From Burkholderiaceae bacterium (GTDB lineage Bacteria > Pseudomonadota > Gammaproteobacteria > Burkholderiales > Burkholderiaceae_D), in the NCBI GenBank assembly GCA_019751755.1, contig JAIENA010000185.1, positions 559-64,558 of the forward strand: a DNA stretch of 64,000 nucleotides. Reading direction: 5' to 3'. Below the pieces are notes generated by a model. The model was not told where the DNA came from. It made no database searches and worked only from the letters and a program-made list of their open reading frames with translations. Numbering within the stretch: position 1 is the stretch's first letter; each line of letters starts with the position of its first letter. The position numbers were made by a program, and so were the translations under genes. Below are positions 24,641-51,728 of this stretch, in pieces.

Positions 24641-24750
24641 CTACTCATTTGCAGATTTTTTCAACGCACAATAGAAGTTGCTAACTTTCAATTCCAGTCC
24701 TATTCTTGTACCATAATCATCTTACGAAACAACGACTTTGGAATCTATAC

Positions 24751-26262: not shown

Positions 26263-26789
26263 GCAAGCCCTTGGATATCTGTCGCGTACGGGTTGGGGCA
26301 ATTGTCGGCGCAGTCGCAGCACGAGTAGAGGTCATGCAGGACGCGCCTCCACCCAGTCATACCGAAGCCAGCCTGCTGGAAGATATGCTTCGCGCTGCGC
26401 GCCACGCCGAGAATCCTGCCGACGCGGCGGTTCTCGAGGCGACCAACGGGATTGGTACGGCCCGAACACGTAGCGAAGGTATTATCGAACTGATTCGAAA
26501 TAAGTCACTAGCACGAGAAACGCGTCTCGTTGCCGGCCGTCAAACTACTGTGGTTGTGTTGACAGAAACAGGAAGAAGGCTAGAAGCAGCTTTGCCGACA
26601 GAGCTCAAGAGTGTGGGCCTGACGGCGAAGTGGGAGATGTTGTGTCGGCGTATCGAACGAGGCGAGGTCACTGCGGAGAGCTTCATAGCGGTGATCCGGA
26701 AGTTTGTAGCAGCTGTGGTTGCGGATGCTAAAAAGCGAAAGGCAAGTGGTCGAGTTGCAACCACGCCAGCCAGTGTCCGCCAAAATTAA
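26259..26789 (+). CDS. Topo III-like C-terminal fragment as a separate ORF
   Basis: The GTG start overlaps the previous stop (GTGA). PPPSHTEASLLEDM...GIGTARTRSEGIIELI...LTAKWEMLCRRIERGE matches the conserved C-terminal domain of TopB. Confidence 0.65.
   Translation: MSKPLDICRVRVGAIVGAVAARVEVMQDAPPPSHTEASLLEDMLRAARHAENPADAAVLEATNGIGTARTRSEGIIELIRNKSLARETRLVAGRQTTVVVLTETGRRLEAALPTELKSVGLTAKWEMLCRRIERGEVTAESFIAVIRKFVAAVVADAKKRKASGRVATTPASVRQN
26755..26786 (+). promoter_or_regulatory. box promoter D: TTGCAACCACGCC-N13-CAAAAT, inside the 3' end of the topo fragment
   Basis: Box at 26755-26767 and -10-like at 26781-26786. ATG 26827 lies downstream. Confidence 0.45.
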
Positions 26790-30009: not shown

Positions 30010-31296
30010 ATGCGATATAAGAAAACCATAATTGCTTTGGCCGCGATCGCGACCGTGAGCGCATCTACATCTTCCTTCGCGATTGGCGACTCCGCAGTCC
30101 TGGCTCCCTTGATTAACCTGACGACGGCAGCAGTGAACGCCACAACTGGTGCGGTCACTGCGGGCTTCTCGACCATCGGCCAGCAACTGCTTCGCATCGA
30201 GAACGTGATGACCGCTAATTCTGCGAAGGTTGCGAATCAGATCGCGGAAGCGAGCCAGAATCAGGTTGAGCGCAACATCGATATTGAGCGCACTAAGCAA
30301 GCTGTCGACCTGGAACGCAAGACCAGGTTGCCACTCGACCCATGCGCCAATGCTTCCCGCGGCCTGGCCGATCCGAGCTTCGATCGGATCAATCCAGGCT
30401 TCCGTGGCGCCAACGGCGGCGCCTTCGGTCCACGTGGGTCCGGCGGTGGCGGCGGCCGGCCATCCACAGGATCCTCTTCGATGGATAAGGCTGTCGCGAT
30501 CGCACGCAATGACGACTTCGCGCCACCGCCGGAGGTGCAGGCCGTCATGGCGCAGCGCGGCGCGTGCGAGGCGTACGCCAGCGGAAAGGTGCGCGCCCAG
30601 TCGTGCACCTGGGCCGGCACTACGCCTTCCGTCTCGACGGGTCTTCCAGATGCCGACATCCGCGCTTCGACAATTTTCGACGGCGCCCAGACAACGGCCG
30701 ATCAGGGCAAAGTTTCGCTTTCGTTCAGCGACAAGCAACTGGCGGCCGCCACCGCGTACGTGCGTAATCTCTCGGCGCCGGTGCAGCTGCGCGACCTGAC
30801 CCAGGTCGAAGCAAAGACTGATGAGGGCCGCCGTTATCTCGCCCTTCGCGACAGCTACCAGGCGCGGGTCGACCTGGCCATGCGTCCAATCGAGGAGTGG
30901 ACGAGCAATCGCACGAAGTACGCGGCAACCATCCCGATCCTGAAGGCGATGCAGGAGGGCGGTGGCGCGGCAGCGCGCTACCTCGCCCAGCACCTCCCCG
31001 AGGCAGCTCCGGACTGGCAGAGCAAGGGAATCTCCCTGCACCACCTGCAGTACATCGATGCAGCGCGCCGCTATGACAACCCCGAGTGGATCAAGGAGAT
31101 CGGCGCGGCTGATGAAGTGACGCTCCAGCGAGAGCAGCTGCTGCTCTCGGCGCAGATGGCGAGTCTGATGTCGAAGAGCCTGATGGAGACGCAGAAAGCG
31201 AATGCGCTACTGGGCGTCGTCTACCAGGCATCGCTTAACAAGGACTTCATGCCCGAACTGGCCGCCCAGCACAAGCGGGCGACGTCGACGCGCTAG
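30010..31296 (+). CDS. secreted protein (428 aa), possible periplasmic transfer component
   Basis: Signal peptide MRYKKTIIALAAIATVSASTSSFA and a Gly-rich internal segment. Confidence 0.55.
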   Translation: MRYKKTIIALAAIATVSASTSSFAIGDSAVLAPLINLTTAAVNATTGAVTAGFSTIGQQLLRIENVMTANSAKVANQIAEASQNQVERNIDIERTKQAVDLERKTRLPLDPCANASRGLADPSFDRINPGFRGANGGAFGPRGSGGGGGRPSTGSSSMDKAVAIARNDDFAPPPEVQAVMAQRGACEAYASGKVRAQSCTWAGTTPSVSTGLPDADIRASTIFDGAQTTADQGKVSLSFSDKQLAAATAYVRNLSAPVQLRDLTQVEAKTDEGRRYLALRDSYQARVDLAMRPIEEWTSNRTKYAATIPILKAMQEGGGAAARYLAQHLPEAAPDWQSKGISLHHLQYIDAARRYDNPEWIKEIGAADEVTLQREQLLLSAQMASLMSKSLMETQKANALLGVVYQASLNKDFMPELAAQHKRATSTR

Positions 31297-31397: not shown

Positions 31398-31781
31398 ATG
31401 AAAAATAATCCACATTACGCCCCTGGAAATCTCCTCGACATGCTCTTGCATGTACTTCGGGTCAAAAACGACCGACATCTCGCAGCGCGCTTCAGTGTAT
31501 TGCCGTCTCAGATCTGCAAGATTCGCAAACGCCGTGCGCCGATTTCGGCGGCCTTCCTGATCAATATGCACGAGGAGACAGGGCTCGGCCTGGCCGTGCT
31601 ACGGGCCCTGATGGGAGATTTCCGGGAACATACGGGTCGGTCGGCGAAGCACCCTGCCGTTCCACCGCCAGAGCGCCTGCAGGAGTTGCAGCGGCTTCAT
31701 GACCTGCACCGGCAGCCTTGCATAGGGCTACCAATAAAACGTTTAGCCAGCCACCTGGGGCAAGCCAACTCCGCAATCTAA
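31398..31781 (+). CDS. HTH transcriptional regulator-like protein (127 aa)
   Basis: LLHVLRVKNDRHLAARFSVLPSQICKIRKRRAPISAAFLINMHEETG resembles Cro/CI-like HTH proteins of mobile elements. Confidence 0.45.
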   Translation: MKNNPHYAPGNLLDMLLHVLRVKNDRHLAARFSVLPSQICKIRKRRAPISAAFLINMHEETGLGLAVLRALMGDFREHTGRSAKHPAVPPPERLQELQRLHDLHRQPCIGLPIKRLASHLGQANSAI

Positions 31782-31905
31782 GGAGCCCTTGATCTGCACA
31801 AAAAGCCCATTACTTTCGAATCGTGGGGGGCAATGGGCGGCTAATGAGCATCAGGATTCCTCAAAAAACACGAAGGAAATCTGAAGTTATGCCTCCTGGG
31901 GAAAG

Positions 31906-32844
31906 CTACTTCGCCCCTTCCTTCTTGGCTTTGTCCTTCGCTTCCTTGATGGCCTTCGCGGAACTGAGCACTGTGTTGACGTAGTCCATCGTCGTTGGCA
32001 AAGCGGCATCTTCGGCAACTACGTCGGCGCCGCAGCTTGCGCCGAATATCACCTTCCCTTTGTCAGGGAGCCGAAGTTGCTCTACCCAACCAGGTTCAGC
32101 TACGCGAACCGATGCGCTGCCTTGTAGGTCTGGTACTGCGGTATTCTTGACCTGTATGGTCACCGTTCGGCATGCACTGTAAAAAACCGAATCCGATTCG
32201 AACGGGAATGACGTAGGTGCCTGAATTGCATTCAACGGACGTGCGGAGATCACAACATCTGCGGTGTATGGGGTCGGAGCCCCGCCGTCGGCTACATGTC
32301 CACCTTTGGGGAACTTGAAGTCGGTGCAAACGACCTTGCCGTCCAACGCCGCTAAGCACTCCTTGGAAGTAAGCAACTCAGTCAGGGTTATCGCACCGGG
32401 GGCCTTAGATTTTGCAGACTTAGAATCGTCAATGGCGCCTGCAGCGAACAGGGGGATCGCATTAACGAGCGCGCTGGATACATCGGAGATAAGCTGCCTT
32501 CGAGTGTCCGCGATTTCGGAACCCAATTCCTGTAGGAGTAGGGTGTCGTTACGGTGCGTTGCTTTGATAGCCGTCTTGACGCCCCAATTGTCCATTACCC
32601 CCGTTCCGGAGATAGTGTAGGTCTTCGTCTCAAGTGGGACCGGAACAGACATAATCACCAGTTTGGAGGTATTTTCGGCCTTTACTGGCCCAATAGCCTC
32701 TACTGCGTAGTCAAACTTTATCAAAGATTCGGCCAGTTGGAAACGTACTCCTTTGTCGCCAGCCTTGGCTTCGTCATACTTGACCTTCGGCGCCGCACAT
32801 CCTGCCAATACAGCGGCTGCTCCGAATAATAGTACGATCTTCAT
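31906..32844 (-). CDS. lipoprotein (312 aa)
   Basis: MKIVLLFGAAAVLAGC lipobox. Visibly lower GC than the flanks. Confidence 0.65.
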   Translation of the reverse strand: MKIVLLFGAAAVLAGCAAPKVKYDEAKAGDKGVRFQLAESLIKFDYAVEAIGPVKAENTSKLVIMSVPVPLETKTYTISGTGVMDNWGVKTAIKATHRNDTLLLQELGSEIADTRRQLISDVSSALVNAIPLFAAGAIDDSKSAKSKAPGAITLTELLTSKECLAALDGKVVCTDFKFPKGGHVADGGAPTPYTADVVISARPLNAIQAPTSFPFESDSVFYSACRTVTIQVKNTAVPDLQGSASVRVAEPGWVEQLRLPDKGKVIFGASCGADVVAEDAALPTTMDYVNTVLSSAKAIKEAKDKAKKEGAK

Positions 32845-32867
32845 ATTTTATACCCCTGTTGGTATTG

Positions 32868-33680
32868 TTAATGTCCTGGTATCAGAAGCTCATCGAACTT
32901 CGTCGTCAGCATTTTCGAATGTTCTTTACACTCCTTTCTGATTTTGTTCAGTGATCGCCGATCATGAAGCGGGGCTTTGAGCTTTGGAATATCAGCAAAG
33001 CTGCGCTCAAACTGCCCAATGTATAGCCGTGCCGGCATGGGGCCAGGTACAAAAGGTCCTCGATCCATTGTCTTTAGGCCATCCTTTCCATATACCGCTT
33101 GGATAGCTCTCCCCTGATCAGTCACCCAGGCTAGCGTCCCGCCGGGCAGGACTTGGCGAGGCGACTTGATATTGCCGCAAAAGCTGTACGTCTTACCGGG
33201 AGAAGGTGCGGTATCGAAATACCAGGGAAAACAGAAGTCTGATACCACCCAGCCGCCCATCTGATAGGAATAGTGGTAGTCTTGACAGGGGTCGCATACC
33301 TCCAGGATGTACTTGCATGGAGCAGAGTCGTCCGGGGTTCGGCCAGCGACGAATTCGTTGGCGCTCGGATCGATCAACATCTCCAAAATTTCATGACTAG
33401 CTGCCAGCGACCATAGCGGTCCGGCCTGAACGACCGCATAGGGCAATCCATCCTCGGTGAAGTGAAAGCCTGAGAGGCCGCCGCCGACATTATCGACAAC
33501 GAAAATTGGTGTATAGCCCAACTGGGGCGTAGCACTGGCACCGACGACTGCGGAGCGCTTCCAAACCGGTGCAAAATCCCGCAGTATCTGTTCCTGAATG
33601 GCTAGTGCAGCAGAAGAGGCCTTCGCCACGCTTAGCGACGACGTTCGCGGAATGATAGTGACTTTCGCTAAAGTCCCCAT
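32868..33680 (-). CDS. hypothetical protein (270 aa)
   Basis: ATG 33680 after TAAGGAATC. Cys-rich middle region, lower GC. No family recognised. Confidence 0.55.
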   Translation of the reverse strand: MGTLAKVTIIPRTSSLSVAKASSAALAIQEQILRDFAPVWKRSAVVGASATPQLGYTPIFVVDNVGGGLSGFHFTEDGLPYAVVQAGPLWSLAASHEILEMLIDPSANEFVAGRTPDDSAPCKYILEVCDPCQDYHYSYQMGGWVVSDFCFPWYFDTAPSPGKTYSFCGNIKSPRQVLPGGTLAWVTDQGRAIQAVYGKDGLKTMDRGPFVPGPMPARLYIGQFERSFADIPKLKAPLHDRRSLNKIRKECKEHSKMLTTKFDELLIPGH

Positions 33681-33816
33681 TTTAGATTCCTTATGATGGC
33701 TTATTTCAGCAATATAGCCATTACCCACGCTAAGCAATCTCTCACATTGTCACTTCAGCAATTACGCAACAAACTAATTAAAAATAAGACATGTCCCGCC
33801 AGGTATTCGCCGCAGA

Positions 33817-34638
33817 CTATAAGGTGGTTAGAACCAGGACCCGCCGATCCGTCTCGACCATACCTTTTGTAGCGTCGGTGCCCATCAGTATTTCGCCGTT
33901 GGGGAGTGATGCTCCGTTTTTGACCCGGCGTCCGTTCTGCATGACGATCCCGTCAGGAAGAACCTCCCGAATGCCCAGCTTCTCGCCATTCGCGATGTCG
34001 GTCGGCTTGCCTTCGGCTGCCTTGCTCAAGCCGATCCTGGTGTCGCCGTCGGGCTTTGCCGAGGGAATTGCATCTGGCGACCTGGCCTGCTGGCGTTTAT
34101 CCGGCGCCGCAGGAGTCAGCGCCATGCTATCGGCCGCTGGGCCAGGTGCAGGGCCTGGCACTGAAGGTGCGGCCGCGAGCTGGGCTTTTGCTGGTGGCGC
34201 GGCCGTAACGATGCCAGCGCCACCTGGTGGTGCAATTCCCGTATGTTCGGCCTTTGCGGTGACCATCGCCGGCGCCGCAGCCGTGCCATGGGATACATTC
34301 GGCTTCCGCATGGCCGTGGACGCGACCTGGGGCGGATCGTGCGGTACCCGGCTGCCAAGTTCCTTCTGCTGTACCGGGATGCTTTGGGGGTGCGAGGGTG
34401 CTGGCATATGCAGTTGCGTCGCCGCCAGCTCTATCTCGTAGGACGATATGGAAACGCGGGGAGCAGGGTCGACCAGGTGATAGACCACTGCGCCCAGCAG
34501 CGCGCCCGTGGTGAGCATGCAGGTGACGCCACCGAGGAGCATGCCAGCGCGGTGGGGCGACTTCATCCACCTATAGTCTTGGGGAACATATGGCTCCCCG
34601 AGCGCATCTTCGGCCCAGTAGCGATTAAACTCGGTCAT
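33817..34638 (-). CDS. bitopic membrane protein with Ala/Pro-rich linker and small beta-rich C-terminal domain
   Basis: ATG 34638 overlaps the upstream stop (ATGA). TM helix AGMLLGGVTCMLTTGALLGAVVY. Confidence 0.5.
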   Translation of the reverse strand: MTEFNRYWAEDALGEPYVPQDYRWMKSPHRAGMLLGGVTCMLTTGALLGAVVYHLVDPAPRVSISSYEIELAATQLHMPAPSHPQSIPVQQKELGSRVPHDPPQVASTAMRKPNVSHGTAAAPAMVTAKAEHTGIAPPGGAGIVTAAPPAKAQLAAAPSVPGPAPGPAADSMALTPAAPDKRQQARSPDAIPSAKPDGDTRIGLSKAAEGKPTDIANGEKLGIREVLPDGIVMQNGRRVKNGASLPNGEILMGTDATKGMVETDRRVLVLTTL

Positions 34639-34955
34639 TCCGGGGCGCTTTTCGACTTCTGTTCGGCGAACCTCAACACTTCCGCCAGTGGCCAGAGCAG
34701 CCGTCCACTCTTTCGAGTCGGTACCGGCAAACCGGCTGGCGGCACCTGCAGCTTGCGCACGGCACGTTCCTCGCTGGAGAGTGAGTTCAGCCAAACGTAA
34801 TTGCGCAGGGTCGCCTCCGAAAAGCCCATCAATACGGCCGCCTCCGGCGTGCTGATTGGTTCCTGATCCGCCTGAACTCCAGCGACCTGTGCTGCTATCA
34901 CCCGGGCGGCCGCATTGGCTCTGCTAAATACGGAGTGCATGGCTTTGACCACCAC
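34635..34955 (-). CDS. AlpA/excisionase-type (MerR-like) HTH protein
   Basis: ISTPEAAVLMGFSEATLRNY...PTRKSGRLLWPLAEVLRF fits the AlpA/Xis HTH pattern. Confidence 0.5.
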   Translation of the reverse strand: MVVKAMHSVFSRANAAARVIAAQVAGVQADQEPISTPEAAVLMGFSEATLRNYVWLNSLSSEERAVRKLQVPPAGLPVPTRKSGRLLWPLAEVLRFAEQKSKSAPE

Positions 34956-36270
34956 GAAGCGCTTGTTGGATGACCCTGTCCTGTACTCGCGTCGGGCGTG
35001 AGGCAGCTGCTCCAGCTGCAGGTGCCGTTGGTGCGACGGTACCAGGCGCGGGCGTGTCTGGTACCTTTGGCAGCTGTGGGAGGGTCGACGTGTACCGCGC
35101 CGTCTGCGCCCGCCAGAAGAGCTGTATCAGCGCGCCGGGAAGCTGGCGAGACCAATGGAGGATCGCGGAGTTCTCCTGCTGCTGGGCGACCATCAGCGCA
35201 CTCATCCGCGCGGCATGATCAATCAGTCTGCTCATCGCGCCCGGCAGGTCCGCAGCCGGCTCGACAACTTGCATGTCGACAGGTGCGTTGTGTCGAGCAA
35301 GGGCCTCCGACAGGCGGTTGCGAGTACTGAGCATTGATTCGTGCCACGACGCGACGACTTCCCGCGATGCGCTGGTGGTGGCGTCATGCGGGGCGGTCTC
35401 ATCAAGCAAGCGCAGGAATGGCTCGACGTCGCGCTCAGCGCGGTGCAGTAGGTCGAATAGGCGATGCGCGGCTTCGATTCGCGGGTCGGCCTTGATCTGC
35501 TCCTGGGTACTTGCGGCAACTCCGGCCGCGTGAGCGCGTTCTCGCTCGGCGGCTTCTGCAGCAGCAGCCTGGGCGGCACGTTCATGTTCGAGTCGCTGAG
35601 CCTCCTCACGTGCGGCAGCTGCCGCACGCTCTTGCTCTACTGCGCGCGCGAACTCGGTGTCACGCTTTGCTTGTGATGCTTTTCGATCGCGGCGACGAAG
35701 CAGTGCAAAAGCGAGGATCGACAAGGCCGCTACGCTAATGCCGAGATACAGGGGCCAATACGAAGGTTTCTCTCGTTGTAGAGCTGGCGGTGCCGAGATA
35801 GACGTCGGCGCCCGAGCGGCCGGCGCTGACGTCGAGTTTTCAATCTCCGCGCGGCCAGGCTCTTGTGATAGGGCCATCGGTCCCTCCAGTCGAGGGTGAT
35901 GTAGATCCTGGCCAGCTTCGGGCGCAACGCCGGTATCCCGTGAGGCAAGGCTACGCGGCGATAGAGCGGTGACTTTGCTGGCGGTGGTGTCTTCCGAAGG
36001 CGCAGCTGCAGGCTCAAGGCGAGCCACATTCGGCTCCGGAGCCGCGTGCGCAGTACGAATCACCCCTTGCTTTGACCGCTCTGTGGGCGGCTGGGGAGAG
36101 GCATTGTGAGCAGAAGCGGCGGCTCGCCCCGAAAAGTGCTGCTCATCTCTGGCGAAAGAGTGGCGGGGCTCTCCACCATGCGAGCAGGCGGAAAACGACG
36201 CCAGCAGGGCCAGTGCGATGACGCGCTGCGCCCCGTGCGGCCGCGATGGCGTGTTCCGGATGTTAACCAT
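34924..36270 (-). CDS. membrane-anchored coiled-coil protein (448 aa)
   Basis: N-terminal signal/lipoprotein-like segment (ALALLASFSAC), central TM helix (YWPLYLGISVAALSILAFALL), then an Ala/Glu/Arg-rich coiled region. Confidence 0.5.
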   Translation of the reverse strand: MVNIRNTPSRPHGAQRVIALALLASFSACSHGGEPRHSFARDEQHFSGRAAASAHNASPQPPTERSKQGVIRTAHAAPEPNVARLEPAAAPSEDTTASKVTALSPRSLASRDTGVAPEAGQDLHHPRLEGPMALSQEPGRAEIENSTSAPAARAPTSISAPPALQREKPSYWPLYLGISVAALSILAFALLRRRDRKASQAKRDTEFARAVEQERAAAAAREEAQRLEHERAAQAAAAEAAERERAHAAGVAASTQEQIKADPRIEAAHRLFDLLHRAERDVEPFLRLLDETAPHDATTSASREVVASWHESMLSTRNRLSEALARHNAPVDMQVVEPAADLPGAMSRLIDHAARMSALMVAQQQENSAILHWSRQLPGALIQLFWRAQTARYTSTLPQLPKVPDTPAPGTVAPTAPAAGAAASRPTRVQDRVIQQALRGGQSHALRI

Positions 36271-36823
36271 GATCCGCTTCCGAGCGCGGGATCATCTGGC
36301 CGCGAACGCCGCGGTTCGGAACGGCGACGCTTAGGGTGTCGTAGGTGCAGTCGCCGATGACCTTGGAATTGATGCCCAAGTGCAGATCGCCAGCGTCGAC
36401 CTGCGCGGGCTTGCCACTCGCACCCACATCGCCCTCGATCCAAAGGGCGGACGCCAAAATGCGCCCGTGCACCTTCCCGCCCGGCATGATGAGGACACGG
36501 CCGGCGCATTCGATGCTGCCCATGACCGTGCCGCGGATCACCAGGCTCTTTTTGCCGCCGATGCGGATATTGCCATCGATGACATCGTCGACCCCGATTG
36601 CCATGCTGATGTCGAGGCTTTCGCAAAGTACATCGGCAGTAGTGCCCTTGCCGACGTGTTCGGCGAAGCTCGATTCATTCGGATTGCCGCCAGGGTTGAA
36701 CGTGCTCACGCGAGGCGGTGCAGCGCTGGCCTGAGCCTGATGCCCGTGCTGGGTTCCTTGCTGGTGAACGTGAGGGGTGTCGAGGGACGGCAGGCTGCCG
36801 AGGTTGAGGTCCGAATGATTCAT
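36263..36823 (-). CDS. bactofilin-family protein
   Basis: Repetitive beta-helix pattern VIDGNIRIGGKKSLVIRGTVMGSIECAGRVLIMPGGKVHGRILASALWIEGDV is typical of the bactofilin (CcmA) domain. Confidence 0.7.
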   Translation of the reverse strand: MNHSDLNLGSLPSLDTPHVHQQGTQHGHQAQASAAPPRVSTFNPGGNPNESSFAEHVGKGTTADVLCESLDISMAIGVDDVIDGNIRIGGKKSLVIRGTVMGSIECAGRVLIMPGGKVHGRILASALWIEGDVGASGKPAQVDAGDLHLGINSKVIGDCTYDTLSVAVPNRGVRGQMIPRSEADHG

Positions 36824-37437
36824 TTTTGAAGAGCTCCTGGTTGAGGTGTGACGAGTTTTTGATCGGCCTGGAATACGACGGTCCGGCGATCAGTAGTGCG
36901 GGTTGCGGTGAACCCGTGGCGAACTGGATCAACCGCGTCAAGTAGATAGCGGCCGTCCGGGAAATATTTGCCAATGGCAACTTGTACGGTTTGCTCACCA
37001 ATACGGCAGCTGATCGCGGCGTTTTCGATACTCGCAACAAGGCATGGGGCCGAGGTCATTTGTCCGAGAGAATTCACACTCTTTTGCCACCACAGCATCG
37101 CGACGAAGGCTGCAGTCGCGACGATCAGGCCGATTCCGACGCCGATAGCGACACTCTGCCTGGTCGCTTTTTTGAGCATTTTCGCGGCCAACAAGCGGTA
37201 TTCATCGGGCTGAACGCGGACGATTGCGACCCTGGTGATCTCGAAGCTGCCATCCTTTCGCATTTCCAGCCCGTTCGGCGGACCTGGCGGCAACTTTGTG
37301 GCGCCAACGTAACGCTCCTGGATCACGAGCGACGTTGAAATCCGCAGTCCCTCTTTCGGAAACGTGAGCGCAGCAATCTGCGCGTCGCTCAAGCAGTCGA
37401 GGCTGCGTATCGTGTCGTGAAGGGAGTCTCGGTGCAT
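36820..37437 (-). CDS. membrane protein (205 aa), first gene of the bactofilin operon
   Basis: Central TM helix VAIGVGIGLIVATAAFVAMLWW. Its stop overlaps the bactofilin start (ATGA). Confidence 0.5.
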   Translation of the reverse strand: MHRDSLHDTIRSLDCLSDAQIAALTFPKEGLRISTSLVIQERYVGATKLPPGPPNGLEMRKDGSFEITRVAIVRVQPDEYRLLAAKMLKKATRQSVAIGVGIGLIVATAAFVAMLWWQKSVNSLGQMTSAPCLVASIENAAISCRIGEQTVQVAIGKYFPDGRYLLDAVDPVRHGFTATRTTDRRTVVFQADQKLVTPQPGALQK

Positions 37438-37445
37438 TCGAGGAG

Positions 37446-37474
37446 TTGCTTGAAAGTGTGTTGTTGCGTATTAT
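37446..37474 (+). promoter_or_regulatory. sigma-70-type promoter TTGCTT-N17-TATTAT
   Basis: Canonical spacing, in the divergent intergenic region upstream of 37539. Confidence 0.45.
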
Positions 37475-37538
37475 GGGCAAGATGCGTAACTAGAGTCTAG
37501 TGATATATCATTAGGTTGTCCAGCAGAACTATTGCCTC

Positions 37539-37850
37539 ATGCCCACGAATCTGAACAAAACACCAGTCGACTACTTCGAATTCAGCGCTCAGGCGGAGAC
37601 GCCGTTTGTTGTTCTGGAGCATCGCGAAGGCCGTTTGCCTATTCAACGCTCGCTCGTCACGTCAGCCGGCGCAATCGAAATCACTGGCTCCGACGGCGCG
37701 GTCGAGGTTCTCGGTTCTGCCGAGAATCCCTGCAGCACGGCTGTGCTCAAGCGCATTCGTACACACCACGACGGCCTTCTACTTGTTCAGGTCGACGTCG
37801 CGCGTGTCGACGGGGTCAGTGAACAAGTGTTGAGCGCCCGATTTCGTTAA
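37539..37850 (+). CDS. hypothetical protein (103 aa)
   Basis: ORF with ATG start. No motif recognised. Confidence 0.45.
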   Translation: MPTNLNKTPVDYFEFSAQAETPFVVLEHREGRLPIQRSLVTSAGAIEITGSDGAVEVLGSAENPCSTAVLKRIRTHHDGLLLVQVDVARVDGVSEQVLSARFR

Positions 37851-37877
37851 CCTCATCTCAGAAAAGATATATTCCAC

Positions 37878-38609
37878 ATGCTGAACTTATCAATCGTCCG
37901 CCGTGCAGCCGATACCTTGGTAGCACTTGCACTGACGGCCGCCACAGCACATGCATCGCCCGACCTCGATGCTGTAAAAAATTCCGTAAAGACGGTGACA
38001 AAGCTCGATGTCGTAAAGATCGAACCATCAAAGATCGCTGGCCTGTATGAAGTGCAAACTGCTGGTCAGATCTTCTACACTGATGCGAAAGGGGAGTACA
38101 TCCTTCTTGGTGCACAGGTGTTCGCCACCAAGGACAACGCGAACTACTCGGAAAAGCGGATGAACGAACTTGCCGGCTACAAATTTGCGGACTTGCCCTT
38201 GCAAGACGCTATCAAGATCGTGCGCGGGAATGGAAAGAGGGTCGTGGTTACCTTTGAAGATCCGAACTGCGGATACTGCAAGCGCCTGAACAAGACGCTC
38301 GATGAGATGGGTGACTCGACGCACTATGTTTTCATGATCGGCATGCTCGGAGACGAATCGACCACCAAGGCGAAAGCGATCTGGTGCTCGGCAAATCCGG
38401 CGAAGGCATGGACAGACTGGGTGATCGGCGGCAAGCAGGTATCGACTCAATCGAGTGAATGTGAGACTCCCCTCGCGCGCAACGCCAAGATGGCTGAAAA
38501 ATATCGAGTCCAGGGTACGCCAGCGCTCTTCTTCCCGAACGGAGAGCGCGCGCAAGGCTCGATGCCCAGTGATCAGCTGCTCAAGCACTTCGCCAAGCAG
38601 GCGCGGTAG
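37878..38609 (+). CDS. dsbC: DsbC/DsbG-family thiol:disulfide interchange protein
   Basis: Signal peptide, then a thioredoxin-fold motif FEDPNCGYCKRL (CxxC), then GTPALFF near the C-terminus. Confidence 0.8.
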   Translation: MLNLSIVRRAADTLVALALTAATAHASPDLDAVKNSVKTVTKLDVVKIEPSKIAGLYEVQTAGQIFYTDAKGEYILLGAQVFATKDNANYSEKRMNELAGYKFADLPLQDAIKIVRGNGKRVVVTFEDPNCGYCKRLNKTLDEMGDSTHYVFMIGMLGDESTTKAKAIWCSANPAKAWTDWVIGGKQVSTQSSECETPLARNAKMAEKYRVQGTPALFFPNGERAQGSMPSDQLLKHFAKQAR

Positions 38610-39244: not shown

Positions 39245-40030
39245 TCAGCCGCGCGGTGCTTCCGGCGCATCGCCCGCTTCATCGGCTTCCTGAATGCCGA
39301 GCCGATCCTGCAGTTGCTGGATGATGAGGCCGTGCAGCTGCAGAGCCTCCAGCGCATCTTCCGGCTGCGATTGGCGCCCTGCCGCAGTCAGAGGGCCAAC
39401 GGCACGGCTCAGTTCCCGATCGAACACTTCAGCATCGAGGATAGGCTGGTTAAGGTAGCAGATCACGTCGAGTACCTCCGGCTTGGCCAAGATGCGAAGC
39501 ACGGCGAGGCGCGACGCGTCGTCGGGCAGATGGGGGAAAACTGGATTGGCACAAAACGCGTTTTCGATCAGGCCGATGTCTGGTTCAGCTGCGTACCCGT
39601 CATAGCCGTGTAGGACGACATCGCCTATCCAGTCGTCTTCGCCGCTGGACTGCCAGGCCTTCCGGGTTTCGATCATGCCGGTGATGAGGTGCTGGCGTTC
39701 GTCTTCGGTCAGGATCACCATACGGTCGCGTGCATGCTGGCGCACGATAGTGGCGACCGCCATCTCGACGGCGCGCCGAGCTGCCGGCGTGTCTGCGATG
39801 ACCGATTCCAGCATAAGCAGGAGAGCTGCGGAAGCCGAGTGTGGGGCTGAGACTCGGATAGCGCCGATTTCAGTGGATTCATCTGCGAGTGGTGTGAGCA
39901 AGCCCTCGTTGCGGGCGATGTTGATGCCCAGCTCGATTCCTGCTCGCATGGTCGAAGTATCGATCTCTTGCGTGCTGGCCGCGCTGACGCTGATGAGGAA
40001 TTGTTCCTGGTGGGTGGTGGCAATCTGCAT
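39245..40030 (-). CDS. hypothetical protein (261 aa)
   Basis: Clean ORF. No motif recognised. Confidence 0.55.
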   Translation of the reverse strand: MQIATTHQEQFLISVSAASTQEIDTSTMRAGIELGINIARNEGLLTPLADESTEIGAIRVSAPHSASAALLLMLESVIADTPAARRAVEMAVATIVRQHARDRMVILTEDERQHLITGMIETRKAWQSSGEDDWIGDVVLHGYDGYAAEPDIGLIENAFCANPVFPHLPDDASRLAVLRILAKPEVLDVICYLNQPILDAEVFDRELSRAVGPLTAAGRQSQPEDALEALQLHGLIIQQLQDRLGIQEADEAGDAPEAPRG

Positions 40031-42377: not shown

Positions 42378-43529
42378 CTACTTGGCGCCGACGTCCTTGA
42401 GGGCCTGCTTGAGCCTGGAAACCGATTTGGCCTTGTATCGGCGCGTGGTGGTGATGGAGCCGTGCCTCGCTATCTCCTGGCCCAGGGTAATGTCGCCTGT
42501 CGCGTCGACGATCATAGTGACCTGGGTGTGTCTCGCGCAGTGGGAGGCGAAGCTTTTGAGGCGCCCGGCTGCGGCAGGATTCTCCGATGCCATTGCAATA
42601 TGACTCGCACGGTCGAGAAGCTTCTTGACCGCCCTGTTGATCGTCTCCGGGTGCACGTTCCGAAAGGTGCCGCGCATGGGAAGGATCAAGGGTGTAGTGT
42701 CCTTGCCCTGAATGCTGTGCGCAGGCAGCGCAGACAACCCACGGGCGAGCCGATACTCGCGCATCCCGGCCATGAACTGGTCGGCGAGGGGAATGGCGGA
42801 CTCGACGTTGCCTTTGCCGCACACGTCAAGCATCCAGGTGAGCTCTCCGTCTTCGTCGTTGTCCTGGTAGACGTCCCCGGCCACAGCCGCCGCCAGCTCG
42901 TGCCGGCGTAGCGCGGCCCAGAGGAGGGCCGTCCATATCCACTTTTGCTGATGGTATTCGAGTAGGTGCCCCTCTCGCTTTACCTCGTCCAGCGCCTCAT
43001 CGACGTACCCGCGTTCCAGCGCCGACAGCGCCTTCTTGCGCGGCGAGGCCTTCTTCATGATCGAGCTGACCTTGAGGCGGCTGAAAGGGCTCCGCTCGAT
43101 CCTGTACCCGCCCTCCAGCTGCATTTCGATCATGTCGGCGTACATCGCCTTGAGCGCACTGACGGCGCGATCGACGCTCGCCGACGCCAGCGGCGCCGGT
43201 TTGAATGGCTGGCGCTCCAGCCCCGCCCGGTCCAGCACCTCTTGCGGCAGCTGAACTTGCTTTGGTCCGGCCAGAAAATGGGAGTATGCCGCAGCGTCGA
43301 GCGAGCTGGCTTTATCGAGCCATCGGCTGAAAGGCTGGCCAGCCTTCGTCCACATCAACCAGGCGAGCCAGCGGCGCGCCTCGAAACCGAAGGCGCGCTG
43401 GGTATGCTCGGAATTCCGCTTTGAGGCGATCCACGCCACGATAGCTGCCAGGTCGTCGCGAGCGATGGTCGGAGCCGACACAAGGGATGACGAGGCCTGC
43501 TCGAATACGCTCAGGTCACCAGAAGGCAT
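42378..43529 (-). CDS. tyrosine recombinase / integrase
   Basis: Catalytic signature ...LRRHEL..., SHCARHTQVT (HxxR) and HGSITTTRRY (catalytic Tyr). Confidence 0.85.
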   Translation of the reverse strand: MPSGDLSVFEQASSSLVSAPTIARDDLAAIVAWIASKRNSEHTQRAFGFEARRWLAWLMWTKAGQPFSRWLDKASSLDAAAYSHFLAGPKQVQLPQEVLDRAGLERQPFKPAPLASASVDRAVSALKAMYADMIEMQLEGGYRIERSPFSRLKVSSIMKKASPRKKALSALERGYVDEALDEVKREGHLLEYHQQKWIWTALLWAALRRHELAAAVAGDVYQDNDEDGELTWMLDVCGKGNVESAIPLADQFMAGMREYRLARGLSALPAHSIQGKDTTPLILPMRGTFRNVHPETINRAVKKLLDRASHIAMASENPAAAGRLKSFASHCARHTQVTMIVDATGDITLGQEIARHGSITTTRRYKAKSVSRLKQALKDVGAK

Positions 43530-44745: not shown

Positions 44746-47166
44746 TTATTCGCTGGAGCGCCACTGCAGGTAAGATTTGATGGACATAAAGCCGGCTGCT
44801 GCAGCATTGCGCTCCAGTGACCATTGTGTCTCATCGGGTCGCACAAGTTGCAACAACTCCGTCTCCAGCGGCCGTCCGTAGGTATCGCAGATCGCGGTCG
44901 GGGTGGCGTCCGTTGGCTCATCCGAATTGTTGTGGACGTTCGCATCGTCGTAGGCACCGGCGGCCATATCAGCCATATATTCCTTATATTCGGCAACCGT
45001 CGCTTTGATAGCTTCGTCACTCTGGTTCACGATCGCTTGGGCGTCACCAAATATATCGTTCAGATAGTTCCAAGTGCCGTCAGAGCACTCGCCGAGCAGC
45101 GCGGTAAGGCGCTCATGAGCGGCGTTTTGTGCAGCGAGTTCTGCCCCCCTCTCCTCTTTCATCAGTTCTTCGTATGCTGCGTCGAGTTCCTCAAACTCCG
45201 CGGCCTCCGCCTCCGCTTCTCTTTTACGCTGCGCGATGGCTTCCTTTTGCTGTTCATCGAGCGCTTGCTGTGCTGCCTCCGCGCGGCTGATGACCTCAGC
45301 CCAATTCGGTGGTGGTGGCATCAGGCCAGCCTGCAGGAGGCGGCCGTTGATCAGGTCGAGTAGCGCGGAGTTCTCCTGGGGCAGATCCTTGGCCATCGCC
45401 GGTAGGTCAGCCGCATTGTCAACCAAATCCGGCAAGCCTTTCTTTTCTCGGCCGCTGCCGGCGCGAGAAATAAGCGCGCGCTCGCGCCAGGCGGCGGCGC
45501 CGCTTCCGCGCTTGCCCTCGGTTTCCAAACTGGTCGTGTACTTGGTGAGCCAGAGGTGCATGTAGCGCTGGCGTTCCGCGCTGTATCGCAGGCTGATGTC
45601 GTGGTAGCGCTGGTAGAACGCTTCATCGTGGCCGCAATCCAGACTGTCACCCGCGTGTGCAATTTCGTGTTCGACCAGATTGAACACATAAGCGACTGTC
45701 TGCAACGCCTTACCGCTCAGGCGCTGAACGATCTTTTTGTCGATCGCGATATACGTTTCTCCATCGGTCCAGGCCTCGGCCTTGTTCGAGTCACCCAGGA
45801 TAATGTCAAACTGTTTGCCGCCGCGGACCTGATTTCCGTATCGTATATTGCCACCAGTGCACAGGCCAGCGTAGCCGTGGAGGCACCAACGCAGTGCCGT
45901 CCATGCTCGTCGTGTTTCCTTGTCCAGGGTCTTTTCGCTTACAACGCTGGTGCGCTCAACGAACGAATCGCGCATCGTCCCGAAGTCCACCATTTGAGGC
46001 GCGTGAACCTGTGCGTAGTAGCGATTGTCTGGGTAGCTGTCGCGCAAGGTGGCGCAAATTTGTTCGATACACTCGTGAAGGTCGGCTGCGTTGTAGCAGC
46101 CGAAACGCTCGATGGTCTGTGGGTGGACGAGGACTGCGGCCCGGCTGCGGGCGATTGACTCCGCTTTCGGGACATCGAACGCATTTTCTACCACGGCGTA
46201 TTTGGCCTGGTCAAATCCACGCCGGCAGCGGAAGAGGAAATCTTGCATGGTCAGATGTCTTTTGCCAGGCAGGATAGAGATCACCTCCTCTTTTGAGAAA
46301 AGCTGCTGCATGGTGGGATCTCCGCTAAGAAGCGCACGTGCGCTTTTCTCGCGGCGAGCTTCCGTCTTCCGATGGTCGCCCAGCCTCGATGCCACCTCGT
46401 CGGCGAGCTTGCCGAAGCACTTGGCCACCGCCTTCCAGATCGGGCAAGTCTTGCGCAGGATCTCAGTACGCGAGACATTCAACGCAATGGCCTGCTTAGT
46501 CACGATCAGGCCGCCGGCGCCCCACAGGTGAGCAGGGTCGTGGCGGACCAACACGCCGAGGTTGTAGATGGACACCGCTCCTTCGGTCTTTGCGCGGTAG
46601 TACGCGTAGTCGTCTTCGAAGTCCCAGGATTCTTTCCGCGGGTCGCGGGTGATGACGCGCCCATTGAGTTCGACTTCGATCGGGGTGTAACGAACCAGGT
46701 CACGAATTTCCTGAACGGTCGACATATACTCGGCATCGGACAGCACCTCGTACCAAGTTCCCGATATGCGGCATCCGTGTTCTGGCGCCGGCAGCGTGAC
46801 CAGATCGTAGTTGTAGCCCATGCTGCGGGTATCGACATTCATCGTCCACAGATTCGACGACCAGGTAGTTTTTGCGTGAGCCATGATCTGGCCACGCCCC
46901 AGTCGGAAGCGGCCATAGGTGGCATCGCCTTCCTGGTGTGGTGTTCCGAAACGGCCAAAGTACATCCGTACGTCTTCTTCGGTCGCAAATCCATTACCGT
47001 CGTCGGCACAAATGAAGCCTTGGTGGTCGATATTCAGCTTGACGCGACTGGCACCGGCGTCTACGGAGTTCATCAGCAGTTCAATGATCGCCTTGCCGAT
47101 CGAACCGGCCTGGCTGTAGATGATGTGGTGGATGATCTGCGGGTCGAGTTCAAATGGGAGAAGCAT
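44746..47166 (-). CDS. GHKL-superfamily ATPase (Hsp90/MutL/MORC-type) fused to an HExxH region and an acidic coiled C-terminus
   Basis: N-box IELLMNSVDAGA, G1 box ADDGNGF, and later NLVEHEIAHAGDSLDCGHDE (HExxH). Confidence 0.65.
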   Translation of the reverse strand: MLLPFELDPQIIHHIIYSQAGSIGKAIIELLMNSVDAGASRVKLNIDHQGFICADDGNGFATEEDVRMYFGRFGTPHQEGDATYGRFRLGRGQIMAHAKTTWSSNLWTMNVDTRSMGYNYDLVTLPAPEHGCRISGTWYEVLSDAEYMSTVQEIRDLVRYTPIEVELNGRVITRDPRKESWDFEDDYAYYRAKTEGAVSIYNLGVLVRHDPAHLWGAGGLIVTKQAIALNVSRTEILRKTCPIWKAVAKCFGKLADEVASRLGDHRKTEARREKSARALLSGDPTMQQLFSKEEVISILPGKRHLTMQDFLFRCRRGFDQAKYAVVENAFDVPKAESIARSRAAVLVHPQTIERFGCYNAADLHECIEQICATLRDSYPDNRYYAQVHAPQMVDFGTMRDSFVERTSVVSEKTLDKETRRAWTALRWCLHGYAGLCTGGNIRYGNQVRGGKQFDIILGDSNKAEAWTDGETYIAIDKKIVQRLSGKALQTVAYVFNLVEHEIAHAGDSLDCGHDEAFYQRYHDISLRYSAERQRYMHLWLTKYTTSLETEGKRGSGAAAWRERALISRAGSGREKKGLPDLVDNAADLPAMAKDLPQENSALLDLINGRLLQAGLMPPPPNWAEVISRAEAAQQALDEQQKEAIAQRKREAEAEAAEFEELDAAYEELMKEERGAELAAQNAAHERLTALLGECSDGTWNYLNDIFGDAQAIVNQSDEAIKATVAEYKEYMADMAAGAYDDANVHNNSDEPTDATPTAICDTYGRPLETELLQLVRPDETQWSLERNAAAAGFMSIKSYLQWRSSE

Positions 47167-47223
47167 TGTTACCTCAATAGGATAGATCGGTTACTCGTTT
47201 TTCCTTATTCCCGTCGGCGCCGA

Positions 47224-48120: not shown

Positions 48121-48192
48121 TGTTGATTTCCTCGTGGTTATTTTGGTTGTATGACTATAATACATAACAGAAATTGCTTGTAGGTATTATTG

Positions 48193-48205
48193 GTGCAACC
48201 ACGCC
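48193..48205 (+). promoter_or_regulatory. box copy F1 (GTGCAACCACGCC), no -10 at the canonical gap
   Basis: In tandem with F2, 35 nt upstream of it. Confidence 0.4.
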
Positions 48206-48227
48206 CCGATCCCGGTGCCGATAGATG

Positions 48228-48259
48228 TTGCAACCACGCGCGAAGCTCACCGGTACGAT
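48228..48259 (+). promoter_or_regulatory. box promoter F2: TTGCAACCACGCG-N13-TACGAT
   Basis: -10 at 48254-48259. ATG 48293 follows AAGGAACAGG. Confidence 0.55.
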
Positions 48260-48292
48260 CAAGGCGTCCAAACCACACATAAGGAACAGGTA

Positions 48293-49231: not shown

Positions 49232-49321
49232 AGCCCTCGAACGAATAATGGCGCCAGCTGGCGCTGCCCTGGCGAAGTCGCCTATTGCGACGCCGCTGAT
49301 TTTCTTCAGATAGGTAAAACC

Positions 49322-49705: not shown

Positions 49706-49741
49706 TCAAAATTGAAAAATACGGATACCCAGCGAAACAAT

Positions 49742-49767
49742 GCCTCGGACGAATCACGAGGCCTTTT
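49742..49767. terminator. hairpin terminator between convergent genes
   Basis: GCCTCG / CGAGGC stem followed by TTTT. Confidence 0.55.
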
Positions 49768-49777
49768 CATTTGCTGA

Positions 49778-50976: not shown

Positions 50977-51007
50977 AGGTGGCCTCGTTTATGAATAGAA
51001 CGTTGCC

Positions 51008-51717: not shown

Positions 51718-51728
51718 GCCCGCGAAGG

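Follow-up and report, generated by a model that had tools for sequence, protein, structure and literature searches.

A bactofilin-containing five-gene cassette of Dot/Icm-type conjugative plasmids as a possible envelope scaffold

The window, that is, the whole stretch of 64,000 nucleotides analysed here, carries five tightly packed genes on the minus strand at 33817-37437: g1 (36820-37437, 205 aa), g2 (36263-36823, 186 aa), g3 (34924-36270, 448 aa), g4 (34635-34955, 106 aa with a GTG start) and g5 (33817-34638, 273 aa counted from ATG). The ORF list and the junction sequences bear out the arrangement given in the initial annotation, with overlaps of 4 nt (ATGA, g1/g2), 8 nt (ATGGTTAA, g2/g3), 32 nt (g3/g4) and 4 nt (ATGA, g4/g5). 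The GTG start of g4 is supported because the homologous position in pJAB4160, a complete Janthinobacterium plasmid carrying the module, is ATG with an identical 32-nt overlap. The 4/8/32 overlaps are seen again in 7-8 of 9 close loci; across the close loci g4 and g5 overlap by 4 nt or 1 nt, with the exception of L002, which has a gap of ~80 nt, and in distant loci the five genes are still tightly packed, with different exact overlaps. The five genes form one operon. The overlaps had also been taken to imply fixed stoichiometry, which reads too much into them, since overlapping genes are evidence of co-expression only.

Divergent from g1 lies g0 (37539..37850, plus strand), encoding a soluble protein of 103 aa without a match in Pfam or PHROG searches. 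It adjoins g1 in 8/8 close loci and in L012, L013, L016 and L018, with 35-94% identity, L015 being the single locus that lacks it. Directly downstream of g0 is a gene for a DsbC-like periplasmic disulfide isomerase (37878..38609, plus strand; Pfam DsbC_N and Thioredoxin_2). L012 and L018, both distant loci, share this arrangement, and dsbC is missing at that position in pJAB4160, L003 and L013; the isomerase is a recurrent, non-constant neighbour and possibly an accessory of the module. The conjugative-element context assigned earlier is correct, the window containing genes for DotI, DotH, a DotO/TraU-like ATPase and a TraW/IcmX-like protein, together with a gene at the DotF position (6792-7841). 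An integrase gene (42378-43529) lies 7.4 kb from g4 and is not adjacent to the module. Further downstream, the window holds defence-like genes encoding methyltransferases, a PAPS-reductase-like protein and a HATPase protein.

The 101-bp intergenic region between g0 and g1 contains a candidate operator, an 18-bp palindrome at 37497..37514 (half-sites CTAATGATA and TATCATTAG, one mismatch in the window's copy), which overlaps promoter-like hexamers. Across the 8 close loci L001-L008 the palindrome is perfect and does not vary, even though they include L002, whose bactofilin is 49% identical. One copy is present in the window, where none is expected by chance, and one in the entire 160-kb pJAB4160. 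A consensus scan of 33500-38000 returned three promoter-like sites. Two of them are overlapping sigma-70-like candidates upstream of g1 (37470..37522, minus strand; TGGACA-17-TAGACT and TAGACT-18-CATAAT), the hexamers of which are conserved across loci; the remaining site is located upstream of the module. That the only conserved candidate site occurs once, as a palindrome within the promoter of the operon itself, points to local regulation.

The candidate regulator within the operon is g4, which appears to be a small HTH_17/MerR-like protein with an excisionase-like winged helix. The initial annotation had called it AlpA/excisionase-like. The HTH_17/MerR likeness holds at sub-threshold level (HTH_17, 20 bits vs a Pfam cutoff of 27; among 9 family members, five match HTH_17 and four MerR, all below threshold), and the AlpA part was not borne out, Phage_AlpA giving no match; a PDB sequence search likewise yielded nothing significant. 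In common with small regulators of this type, g4 has ~100 aa and a helix-turn-helix followed by a wing, and the motif TLRNY...PP.G.P.P.R..GRL.W is conserved. In contrast to them, its matches all fall below curated cutoffs and its HTH bears an insertion of ~20 residues; the N-terminal 33 residues are variable, and the coiled-coil dimerisation and effector domains of MerR are absent. The palindrome could instead be bound by g0 or another regulator.

The identification of g2 as a bactofilin survives profile search (PF04519, E 1.7e-11, 44.6 bits vs a curated cutoff of 27.9), and PF04519 is found in all 29 clusters of its family obtained by word-indexed protein search. The beta-helix core spans residues ~76-167. 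The N-terminal tail carries a conserved LDTPH motif, joined by NESSFAEHV in close relatives. The family alignment, compared with the published consensus, shows no MFSKKKK-type membrane-targeting sequence in this tail, a sequence present in most bactofilins (PMC12448750), and g2 has no TM segment. It is predicted to be a cytoplasmic bactofilin devoid of the usual membrane-targeting peptide. A tblastn search found g2 on 1 of 72,556 PLSDB plasmids.

The other three proteins, g1, g3 and g5, each contain one hydrophobic TM segment, and their topologies were assigned from the charges flanking these segments. It is predicted that g1 and g5 are N-in bitopic proteins with a periplasmic C-terminus and that the C-terminus of g3 is cytoplasmic, in agreement with the topologies first proposed. 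In g1, a cytoplasmic N-domain of ~95 aa (conserved motifs SDAQ.A.L, RY.G...PPGPP.G and VAIVRV) precedes TM 96-114, flanked by 5 K/R on the N-side vs 1 on the C-side, and a periplasmic domain of ~85 aa in which two Cys are invariant (PC...C) and an FPDG motif occurs. P131, C132, C144, F159 and P160 are invariant in the family alignment (26-33 sequences), and no match was found in Pfam, NCBIfam, PADLOC or PHROG.

The 448-residue g3 starts with a lipoprotein-type signal peptide (lipobox LASFSAC, with Cys29 invariant in an alignment of 39 sequences), followed by a periplasmic stretch predicted to be disordered (30-172) and a TM helix (~173-191, with 7 K/R on its C-terminal side) that runs on as a long cytoplasmic helix to residue 261. 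A highly conserved four-helix bundle (263-395, AlphaFold2 pLDDT >90) and a short conserved C-terminal helix complete the protein, and the invariant columns of the 39-sequence alignment concentrate at 271-405. In distant loci the bundle is retained and the N-terminal half is variable or absent (soluble in L015). Foldseek returned only generic ferritin/Dps-like four-helix-bundle matches (E ~1e-2, rmsd 7-9 A), so the modelled bundle appears to be without an informative structural relative.

The cytoplasmic tail of g5 is 30 aa long and conserved (NRYWAEEALGEPY.PQDYRW); it is followed by a TM helix (~31-56), an Ala/Pro-rich disordered periplasmic linker of ~150 aa and a C-terminal two-sheet beta domain of ~55 aa, nearly invariant among 50 aligned sequences (residues 219-272, pLDDT ~90). 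This domain is 63% identical between the window and L013, whose T4BSS core proteins reach 39-44%; no other part of the cassette is as well conserved, which suggests a conserved binding partner. The best Foldseek match in the PDB is GspB (4wfw, E 0.38, TMt 0.44), and ranks 2-3 are 7MUC chains of 63 and 59 residues (E ~1, TMt 0.51/0.57), whose lengths fit DotF2 207-269 and DotF1 208-266 (PMC8486379). With only ~55 residues in the domain, these matches carry little statistical weight (E 0.4-1). The resemblance to the icmG-position protein claimed earlier is thus retained in part, as a weak fold match to L. pneumophila DotF (IcmG) and GspB; towards the DotF-position protein of the window itself, g5 shows no significant similarity by sequence or by profile comparison (P 0.06), and the profile comparison is not significant for g1 either (P 0.19). 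Small periplasmic beta domains are predicted for both g1 and g5, and hhalign finds the g1 periplasmic domain collinear with the g5 C-domain (P=0.005).

The initial annotation named co-occurrence in other genomes as a check, and gene-neighbourhood comparison shows the five genes to be conserved together: their order is identical in 13/13 related loci long enough to show all five, down to 26-30% g1 identity and across GC 44-60%. Every locus with the module belongs to a conjugative plasmid of the Dot/Icm type (MPF-I, IncI-like), and the g1 family comprises 25 representatives among 1.84 billion proteins. On pJAB4160 the module is accompanied by genes for Rep, ParAB, ParM, DotA, DotD, DotH, T4CP and the thin pilus, with ~20 kb of cargo between the cassette and the closest tra gene. 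The cassette adjoins the TraW/IcmX-like gene in the window, L002, L003 and L018, lies directly upstream of the dotI-dotH-dotG-dotF-position genes in L013, and is near T4CP in L016 and a shufflon/PilV gene in L015. Module proteins of the window are 28-63% identical to those of L013, a range that brackets the T4BSS core, and the cassette has diverged in step with it. Together, g1-g5 and g0 make up a cassette conserved in the backbone of Dot/Icm-type conjugative plasmids that form one small clade. Searches turned up no named family, defence model or paper that corresponds to the unit, in line with the earlier remark that no described role is known for a bactofilin in a conjugative element.

We tentatively propose, as a reading that is plausible while falling short of probable, that the cassette encodes a bactofilin-based, envelope-spanning scaffold anchoring or positioning the plasmid's transfer machinery, with the HTH protein as a local regulator. 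All protein-protein contacts, the partner of the periplasmic domains, the palindrome-binding protein and the biological role are what we infer here. The g2 protein would polymerise beneath the inner membrane and, lacking its own membrane-targeting peptide, would be held there by the conserved cytoplasmic parts of its partners: the N-domain of g1 (~95 aa), the tail of g5 (30 aa) and the g3 four-helix bundle. Near the inner membrane, g1 would place a small beta domain with a disulfide bond, whereas g5 would bear a related DotF/GspB/PilP-like domain on its ~150-residue flexible linker, which could span to a periplasmic or outer-membrane ring; g3 may provide a second periplasmic tether. Such a complex might fix, position or stabilise the T4BSS core complex or the thin-pilus secretin, and g4 would autoregulate the cassette by binding the unique palindrome in the divergent promoter. 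If this scaffold reading is true, the role is one not previously described for a plasmid-borne bactofilin.

In favour of the scaffold, g1-g5 are co-inherited in order and always found on T4BSS elements. The predicted DotF architecture of g5, whose modelled domain finds meaningful fold matches only in GspB and DotF1/DotF2, is consistent with it, as are the apparently collinear periplasmic domains of g1 and g5, a bactofilin that passes the Pfam cutoff yet has no MFSKKKK motif, and an invariant unique palindrome over candidate promoter hexamers combined with a probable HTH protein within the cassette. Against it stand the weak fold matches of g5, the non-significant profile comparisons with the DotF-position protein, the lack of an informative structural relative for the g3 bundle and the cargo gap on pJAB4160. 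To our knowledge, well-studied MPF-I plasmids (R64 and similar) conjugate without such a cassette; together with the occurrence of the bactofilin on a single PLSDB plasmid, this implies that any transfer role would be accessory. The linkage of cassette and backbone is equally compatible with a maintenance or host-manipulation function.

Several known systems share part of this logic. Like DotF/IcmG of Legionella Dot/Icm, g5 combines an N-in TM, a long spacer and a ~60-residue two-sheet C-domain, and, like the plasmid's DotF-position protein, it is alignable between lineages only over its last ~60 residues. What sets g5 apart from DotF and the related periplasmic adaptor domains of GspB, GspC-HR and PilP is that no Pfam family matches it and that its conserved cytoplasmic tail is specific to its own family; since the plasmid already has a DotF-position gene, g5 would be an extra copy at most. 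PilMNOP-type operons of type IVa pili combine a cytoskeleton-like protein, bitopic proteins and a PilP/HR-fold beta domain contacting an outer-membrane ring. The comparison with PilMNOP and with GspL/M/C of the T2SS is an analogy of logic only, based on the g5 fold class: the cassette has no homology to PilM (actin-like), PilN or PilO, its cytoplasmic component is a bactofilin, and an HTH gene is embedded in its operon. A precedent for the scaffold lies in BacA-LmdC (Hyphomonas/Rhodospirillum), BacA-PbpC (Caulobacter) and CcmA-Csd5/Csd7 (Helicobacter), where the bactofilin gene adjoins genes for single-pass proteins, and each bitopic client consists of a short conserved N-terminal cytoplasmic tail, a TM and a long periplasmic spacer that leads to a periplasmic domain at the C-terminus. 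In such modules, as described for BacA with LmdC and PbpC, the polymer recruits the client through its short N-terminal cytoplasmic tail (PMC10945521). In contrast to these, the cassette is plasmid-borne and not chromosomal, is linked to a T4BSS and not to cell-wall genes, contains no domain of the M23 peptidase, PBP or SH3 type, pairs its bactofilin with three distinct membrane proteins and an HTH protein, and has a bactofilin without the usual N-terminal membrane-targeting sequence.

This precedent also feeds the leading rival, a module that serves the host envelope or morphogenesis and has no part in DNA transfer; like chromosomal bactofilin modules, it would act on the cell wall, growth zone or division and could help plasmid establishment or host fitness. 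The best g5 fold match is GspB, GspB-type proteins are reported to bind peptidoglycan, and the periplasmic domains could do the same; moreover, the known characterised modules of a bactofilin and a bitopic client are all morphogenetic (LmdC and PbpC, PMC10945521; Csd5/Csd7). We nevertheless consider it unlikely, as Pfam finds no enzymatic or peptidoglycan-binding domain in any of the five proteins and the cassette is never away from T4BSS plasmids in the sampled loci.

It is rather improbable that the cassette is a plasmid DNA tether, in which g4 would attach the DNA to a membrane site by way of g3 and the bactofilin, forming a partition or docking system that needs no nucleotide and feeds the T4SS. 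The gene of a DNA-binding protein is indeed translationally coupled to scaffold genes, the plasmid has a unique conserved palindrome, and Myxococcus bactofilins organise ParABS complexes according to reviews. However, the DNA anchoring initially suggested is disfavoured by the sole conserved candidate site, one palindrome in the operon's own promoter, a geometry typical of an operator and not of a repeated centromere; in addition, the cassette has no NTPase, and pJAB4160 already carries ParA/ParB and ParM systems.

Entry or surface exclusion, or another barrier to incoming DNA encoded beside the transfer genes, is very unlikely. IncI plasmids have an exclusion gene near traW-traY, and here inner-membrane proteins with periplasmic domains are encoded next to a TraW-like gene; but known exclusion systems are built from no more than two small proteins whose specificity regions vary, whereas five co-conserved proteins are present here. 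PADLOC gives no matches in positive support of this earlier suggestion, and the near-invariance of the exposed g5 domain, seen across 57 clusters, argues against a specificity determinant. An anti-phage or anti-plasmid defence system, also raised initially, is highly improbable despite the defence-like genes further downstream and a marginal match of g4 to the PADLOC mad1 HTH model (E 8e-4), since the PADLOC search gave no positive evidence (g1, g2, g3 and g5 match no model), nuclease, NTPase or other effector domains are absent, and the fixed backbone position and vertical inheritance with the T4BSS are unlike those of a mobile defence island.

The window forms part of a Dot/Icm-type (MPF-I) conjugative element. 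It encodes DotI (3327-3992), DotH (4326-5465), a DotF-position protein (6792-7841), a DotG-position protein, a DotO/TraU-like ATPase (11119-14271), a TraW/IcmX-like protein (30010-31296) and an integrase (42378-43529), and further carries a strawberry-notch-like helicase, a topoisomerase, DsbC and RdgC. The closest complete relative is the circular 160-kb plasmid pJAB4160 of Janthinobacterium sp. HH102, which possesses Rep, ParA/ParB, ParM, DotA/TraY, DotD, DotH, a T4CP and an R64-like thin-pilus gene set. The integrase had prompted a reading of the element as an ICE; this was rejected and the element treated as a plasmid backbone, because pJAB4160 is a circular plasmid that has Rep, ParAB and ParM. 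Within this Dot/Icm-type conjugation system (T4BSS), the initial annotation had singled out five coupled genes at 33817-37437, and five consecutive minus-strand ORFs are indeed found there: g1 (36820-37437, 205 aa), g2 (36263-36823, 186 aa), g3 (34924-36270, 448 aa), g4 (34635-34955, 106 aa, GTG start) and g5 (33817-34638, 273 aa). The junction sequences bear out all four of the overlaps it listed, namely ATGA for g1/g2, the 8-nt ATGGTTAA for g2/g3, 32 nt for g3/g4 and ATGA for g4/g5. The GTG start of g4 is supported by pJAB4160, in which the homologous position is ATG with the same 32-nt overlap.

The proposed co-occurrence of these genes holds at two evolutionary distances. By tblastn, the five genes and the divergent 103-aa gene beside g1 (g0, 37539-37850, +) lie in the same order in eight of eight close loci (pJAB4160, five Massilia genomes and two metagenome contigs), the 4/8/32 overlaps being mostly kept. 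The families are rare: they occur in 5 of 185,579 species genomes and on 1 of 72,556 PLSDB plasmids, a 5.8-billion-protein index yielded 29, 46 and 57 homologue clusters for g2, g3 and g5, and g1, compared exhaustively with 1.84 billion representatives by phmmer, matched 25 proteins, all of about 200 aa. A distant sample was drawn from the contigs of seven g1 relatives (26-38% identity). All five contigs that were long enough carry g1, a bactofilin and g3-like, g4-like and g5-like genes in order, and the two short ones carry g1 followed by the bactofilin; pairwise searches found each gene homologous to its counterpart in the window. In the distant locus L013, the dotI-dotH-dotG-dotF-position genes lie directly downstream of the cassette, and the neighbours elsewhere include a TraW-like gene (L018), a T4CP and a primase (L016) and a shufflon/PilV fragment (L015). 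The loci with the entire cassette have GC contents of 44-60%, and the short contig L014 one of 66%. Compared with their L013 counterparts, the T4BSS core proteins of the window show 39-44% identity and the cassette proteins 28-63% (g1 28%, g2 core 38%, g3 bundle 29%, g4 43%, g5 C-domain 63%); hence the cassette was inherited along with this T4BSS lineage. The five co-inherited genes form an operon on T4BSS plasmids, accompanied by g0, and the periplasmic domain of g5 is the most constrained part of the cassette.

Bactofilins form filaments by nucleotide-independent polymerisation. By sequence, g2 belongs to this family: it matches Pfam PF04519 above the curated threshold (E 1.7e-11; 44.6 bits, cutoff 27.9), with profile positions 3-88 of 98 aligned to residues 76-167, and the domain is present in all 29 g2 homologue clusters. 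An N-terminal membrane-targeting sequence with the consensus MFSKKKK, typical but not obligatory, has been reported for most bactofilins (PMC12448750). The N-terminus of g2 reads MNHSDLNLGSLPSLDTPH, and a motif of the MFSKKKK type was found in no member of the g2 family alignment. Judged from its sequence, g2 is a bactofilin that lacks a membrane anchor of its own.

For the three remaining large proteins, g1, g3 and g5, neither Pfam nor PADLOC gave a match, and NCBIfam and PHROGs gave none for any of the five cassette proteins; a Pfam search across all 26 members of the g1 family gave only scattered single chance matches. Hydropathy and charge distribution point to one TM helix in each, with g1 and g5 predicted to be N-in with a periplasmic C-terminus and the C-terminal half of g3 predicted to be cytoplasmic. 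In g1, a conserved N-domain of 95 aa precedes the TM helix, and the periplasmic domain, which carries two invariant Cys and an FPDG motif, is collinear with the C-domain of g5 (hhalign P=0.005). A DsbC-like disulfide isomerase is encoded directly downstream of g0 in the window (37878-38609, +) and in the distant lineages L012 (6819-7565) and L018 (2907-3635), and is not in that position in pJAB4160, L013 or the close locus L003. Its substrate may be the invariant Cys pair of g1, or it may be a TrbB-type conjugation DsbC. The g3 protein begins with a signal peptide bearing the invariant lipobox LASFSAC. Its AlphaFold2 model, built with 39 homologues, predicts a disordered periplasmic stretch (residues 30-172), one long helix that comprises the TM segment and a cytoplasmic stalk (173-261), and a confident four-helix bundle (263-395, pLDDT >90). 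Foldseek returned for this model only generic ferritin/Dps-type four-helix bundles (E ~1e-2, rmsd 7-9 Å), and a ferritin-like function was rejected because the conserved residues form no ExxH di-iron motifs. The protein is modular: the version in L015 (2514-3530, 338 aa) lacks both signal peptide and TM helix, and that in L018 (5242-7350) reaches 702 aa. The cytoplasmic bundle is constant, as is the TM helix except in L015, and the periplasmic half varies and is missing in L015. Since the bundle is the sole constant part among the g3 versions, comparison of these suggests that it is the functional core.

The g5 protein consists of a conserved 30-aa tail followed by the TM helix, and AlphaFold2 modelling with 50 homologues places this helix at 28-56. 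A linker rich in Ala and Pro, predicted to be disordered, occupies residues 70-218, and residues 219-272 are confidently modelled as a two-sheet beta domain, which is almost invariant among 48 distinct sequences aligned from close relatives. This predicted succession of an N-in TM helix, a periplasmic spacer and a small C-terminal two-sheet beta domain resembles DotF/IcmG. In Foldseek searches, the domain weakly matched two chains of 7MUC (63 and 59 residues; E 0.9-1.1, TM(target) 0.51-0.57, rmsd 3.1-3.2 Å, 50-54 columns), whose lengths fit DotF2 (207-269) and DotF1 (208-266) of the Legionella Dot/Icm system, and the authors of that structure compare the DotF domain to GspC and PilP (PMC8486379). 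The top PDB fold match, also weak, was Dickeya GspB (4wfw; E 0.38, TM(target) 0.44). Low scores are to be expected for a domain of ~55 residues; these three top matches, the only meaningful ones in the PDB, are all periplasmic adaptors of secretion machines. The resemblance that the initial annotation saw between this domain and the icmG-position protein does not extend to sequence: hhalign was not significant (P=0.06-0.22), nor did it find significant similarity between the g1 periplasmic domain and that DotF-position protein of the window. No T2SSB, T2SSC or PilP Pfam match was found for g5, nor any sequence match in the PDB, and PDB sequence searches with the g5, g1, g4 and DotF-position profiles gave low-complexity or chance matches only. 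On the model, g5 is thus DotF-like in predicted architecture and fold class, but falls outside the family at the level of sequence. The periplasmic domains of g1 and g5 would accordingly fall within the secretion-adaptor fold class, g5 through weak matches and on a flexible linker of ~150 residues, and g1 through its alignment to g5.

We propose, tentatively and at chances somewhat short of even, that the cassette encodes a bactofilin scaffold that anchors, positions or stabilises the transfer machine. The putative g2 polymer would be held at the membrane by g1, g3 and g5, single-pass proteins that all have a conserved cytoplasmic part, by analogy with BacA, which holds LmdC through the N-terminal tail of the latter (PMC10945521). 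The periplasmic domains of g1 and g5 would dock on a ring belonging either to the T4BSS or to the thin-pilus secretin, and the complex would thereby anchor, position or stabilise either machine; the tethering of g2, the docking partner and the anchoring of the machine are what we infer in this model. It can further be hypothesised, with more doubt, that the cassette is a plasmid-encoded cytoskeletal positioning system, in which a g2 polymer tethered by DotF-like adaptors would set where, and how many, T4BSS or thin-pilus complexes are built. Functionally, such a system would correspond to DotU/IcmF, which directs polar targeting in Legionella, and g2 would be the first mobile-element-encoded bactofilin serving horizontal gene transfer.

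The closest known kind is the module of a bactofilin with a bitopic client, of the BacA-LmdC type, and the architecture is common to both: a bitopic protein with a conserved cytoplasmic N-terminal part (30 aa in g5, 95 aa in g1) is encoded beside the bactofilin. The clients there carry a cell-wall enzyme domain (M23 peptidase or PBP), whereas neither Pfam nor NCBIfam finds a domain in g1, g3 or g5, and the cassette thus lacks an enzymatic client; the genomic setting and the missing membrane-targeting motif of g2 also differ. Bactofilins are known from chromosomes, as scaffolds that serve morphogenesis, motility and the organisation of the chromosome. A role of the cassette in the host envelope or in morphogenesis, unrelated to transfer, is unlikely.

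The presence of a DNA-binding protein among membrane genes raises a further alternative, a DNA tether or positioning function. The initial description of g4 as an AlpA-type HTH is not sustained: HTH_17 scores 20 bits against a cutoff of 27, Phage_AlpA matches neither g4 nor any of the nine members of its family alignment, and five of these touch HTH_17 and four MerR, all below cutoff. It lies between g3 and g5 in all loci and is not paired with an adjacent integrase, as a recombination directionality role would imply, the integrase being separate and 7.4 kb away in the window. A scan of 33500-38000 gave three sigma-70-like promoter matches, two within the 101-bp region upstream of g1 and the third upstream of the module, and none inside g1-g5. 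The g0/g1 intergenic region (97-106 bp across close loci) contains a perfect 18-bp palindrome (CTAATGATA/TATCATTAG) in the eight close loci, to which the comparison was confined and which include one whose bactofilin is 49% identical; the window copy (37497-37514) has one mismatch. The palindrome overlaps conserved promoter-like hexamers. The window has a single copy (0 expected by chance), as does the entire pJAB4160, and a search for further centromere-like or regulon copies in both found none. A single palindrome at a promoter has the apparent geometry of an operator, not of a centromere. Partition systems (ParABS, ParMRC, TubZRC) combine an NTPase motor with a centromere-binding protein and a repeated centromere, whereas no NTPase is encoded in the cassette. 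Since the operator-like site is single and pJAB4160 already has separate ParAB and ParM genes, the DNA tether is quite improbable. The simplest reading would be that g4, or possibly g0, autoregulates the divergent promoters through the palindrome; as a local autoregulator, g4 would lose most of the oddity of an 'excisionase' among membrane genes.

Entry exclusion is very improbable given five co-conserved genes and an exposed domain that is nearly invariant. Defence is hardly credible: the mad1 HTH model of PADLOC matches g4 marginally (E 8e-4), but no PADLOC-DB system component matches g1, g2, g3 or g5, no effector domains and no PADLOC system are present, and the cassette is inherited vertically with the backbone.

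To our knowledge, the placement and stabilisation of conjugation machines in the envelope are poorly understood outside Legionella, and full-text searches found no paper that ties a bactofilin to conjugative plasmids or to any component of type IV secretion. The cassette is small and genetically tractable, and occurs naturally on plasmids of Janthinobacterium and Massilia strains that can be cultured, so that the question is directly testable. Should the link to transfer be real, a cytoskeletal layer would be added to T4BSS biology, and the g1 N-domain, the g5 tail and the g3 four-helix bundle would represent new families of bactofilin-binding modules; should it not, the cassette would still exemplify the uptake of a host-type cytoskeletal module by a mobile element.

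Several features of the surrounding backbone were also recorded. A cargo hotspot lies between the TraW-like gene and g5 (window 31398-33737; 22332-42844 in the pJAB4160 record): in the window it holds genes for a CI-like HTH protein (127 aa), a lipoprotein (312 aa) and a 289-aa protein, which have no counterparts in the related loci inspected, and in pJAB4160 it spans ~20 kb with imuA-imuB-dnaE2 and many small ORFs. A 261-aa protein without a Pfam match (39245-40030, -) may be a further backbone gene, as ORFs alike by length and position only are found between cassette and integrase in pJAB4160 (259 aa) and L003 (262 aa). The topoisomerase (Topoisom_bac) is encoded by two ORFs with a 4-nt overlap (24706-26262 and 26259-26789, +), and the same split in pJAB4160 (15497-17077/17074-17604), L003 and L018 makes it look like a conserved two-piece arrangement or a programmed frameshift rather than a sequencing error. 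Just upstream of the gene for the 1998-aa strawberry-notch-like helicase (18602-24598) is that of a group II intron reverse transcriptase/maturase (17025-18425, +; RVT_1 and GIIM, E 3e-36 and 1e-19). pJAB4160 (NZ_CP062063.1) is typed as 'non-mobilizable' by PLSDB/MOB-suite, although its Dot/Icm-like gene set is full and it also has thin-pilus genes and a T4CP; current typing models apparently miss the relaxase of this plasmid clade. The region past the integrase and RdgC (44746-60255) may be an island for defence or modification and encodes a HATPase_c_3 protein (806 aa), an AAA_22 ATPase (404 aa), a 516-aa methyltransferase and a PAPS-reductase-like protein (428 aa) that adjoins an N6_Mtase (335 aa); the corresponding arc of pJAB4160 encodes DndB, a cytosine methyltransferase and AbiEii.
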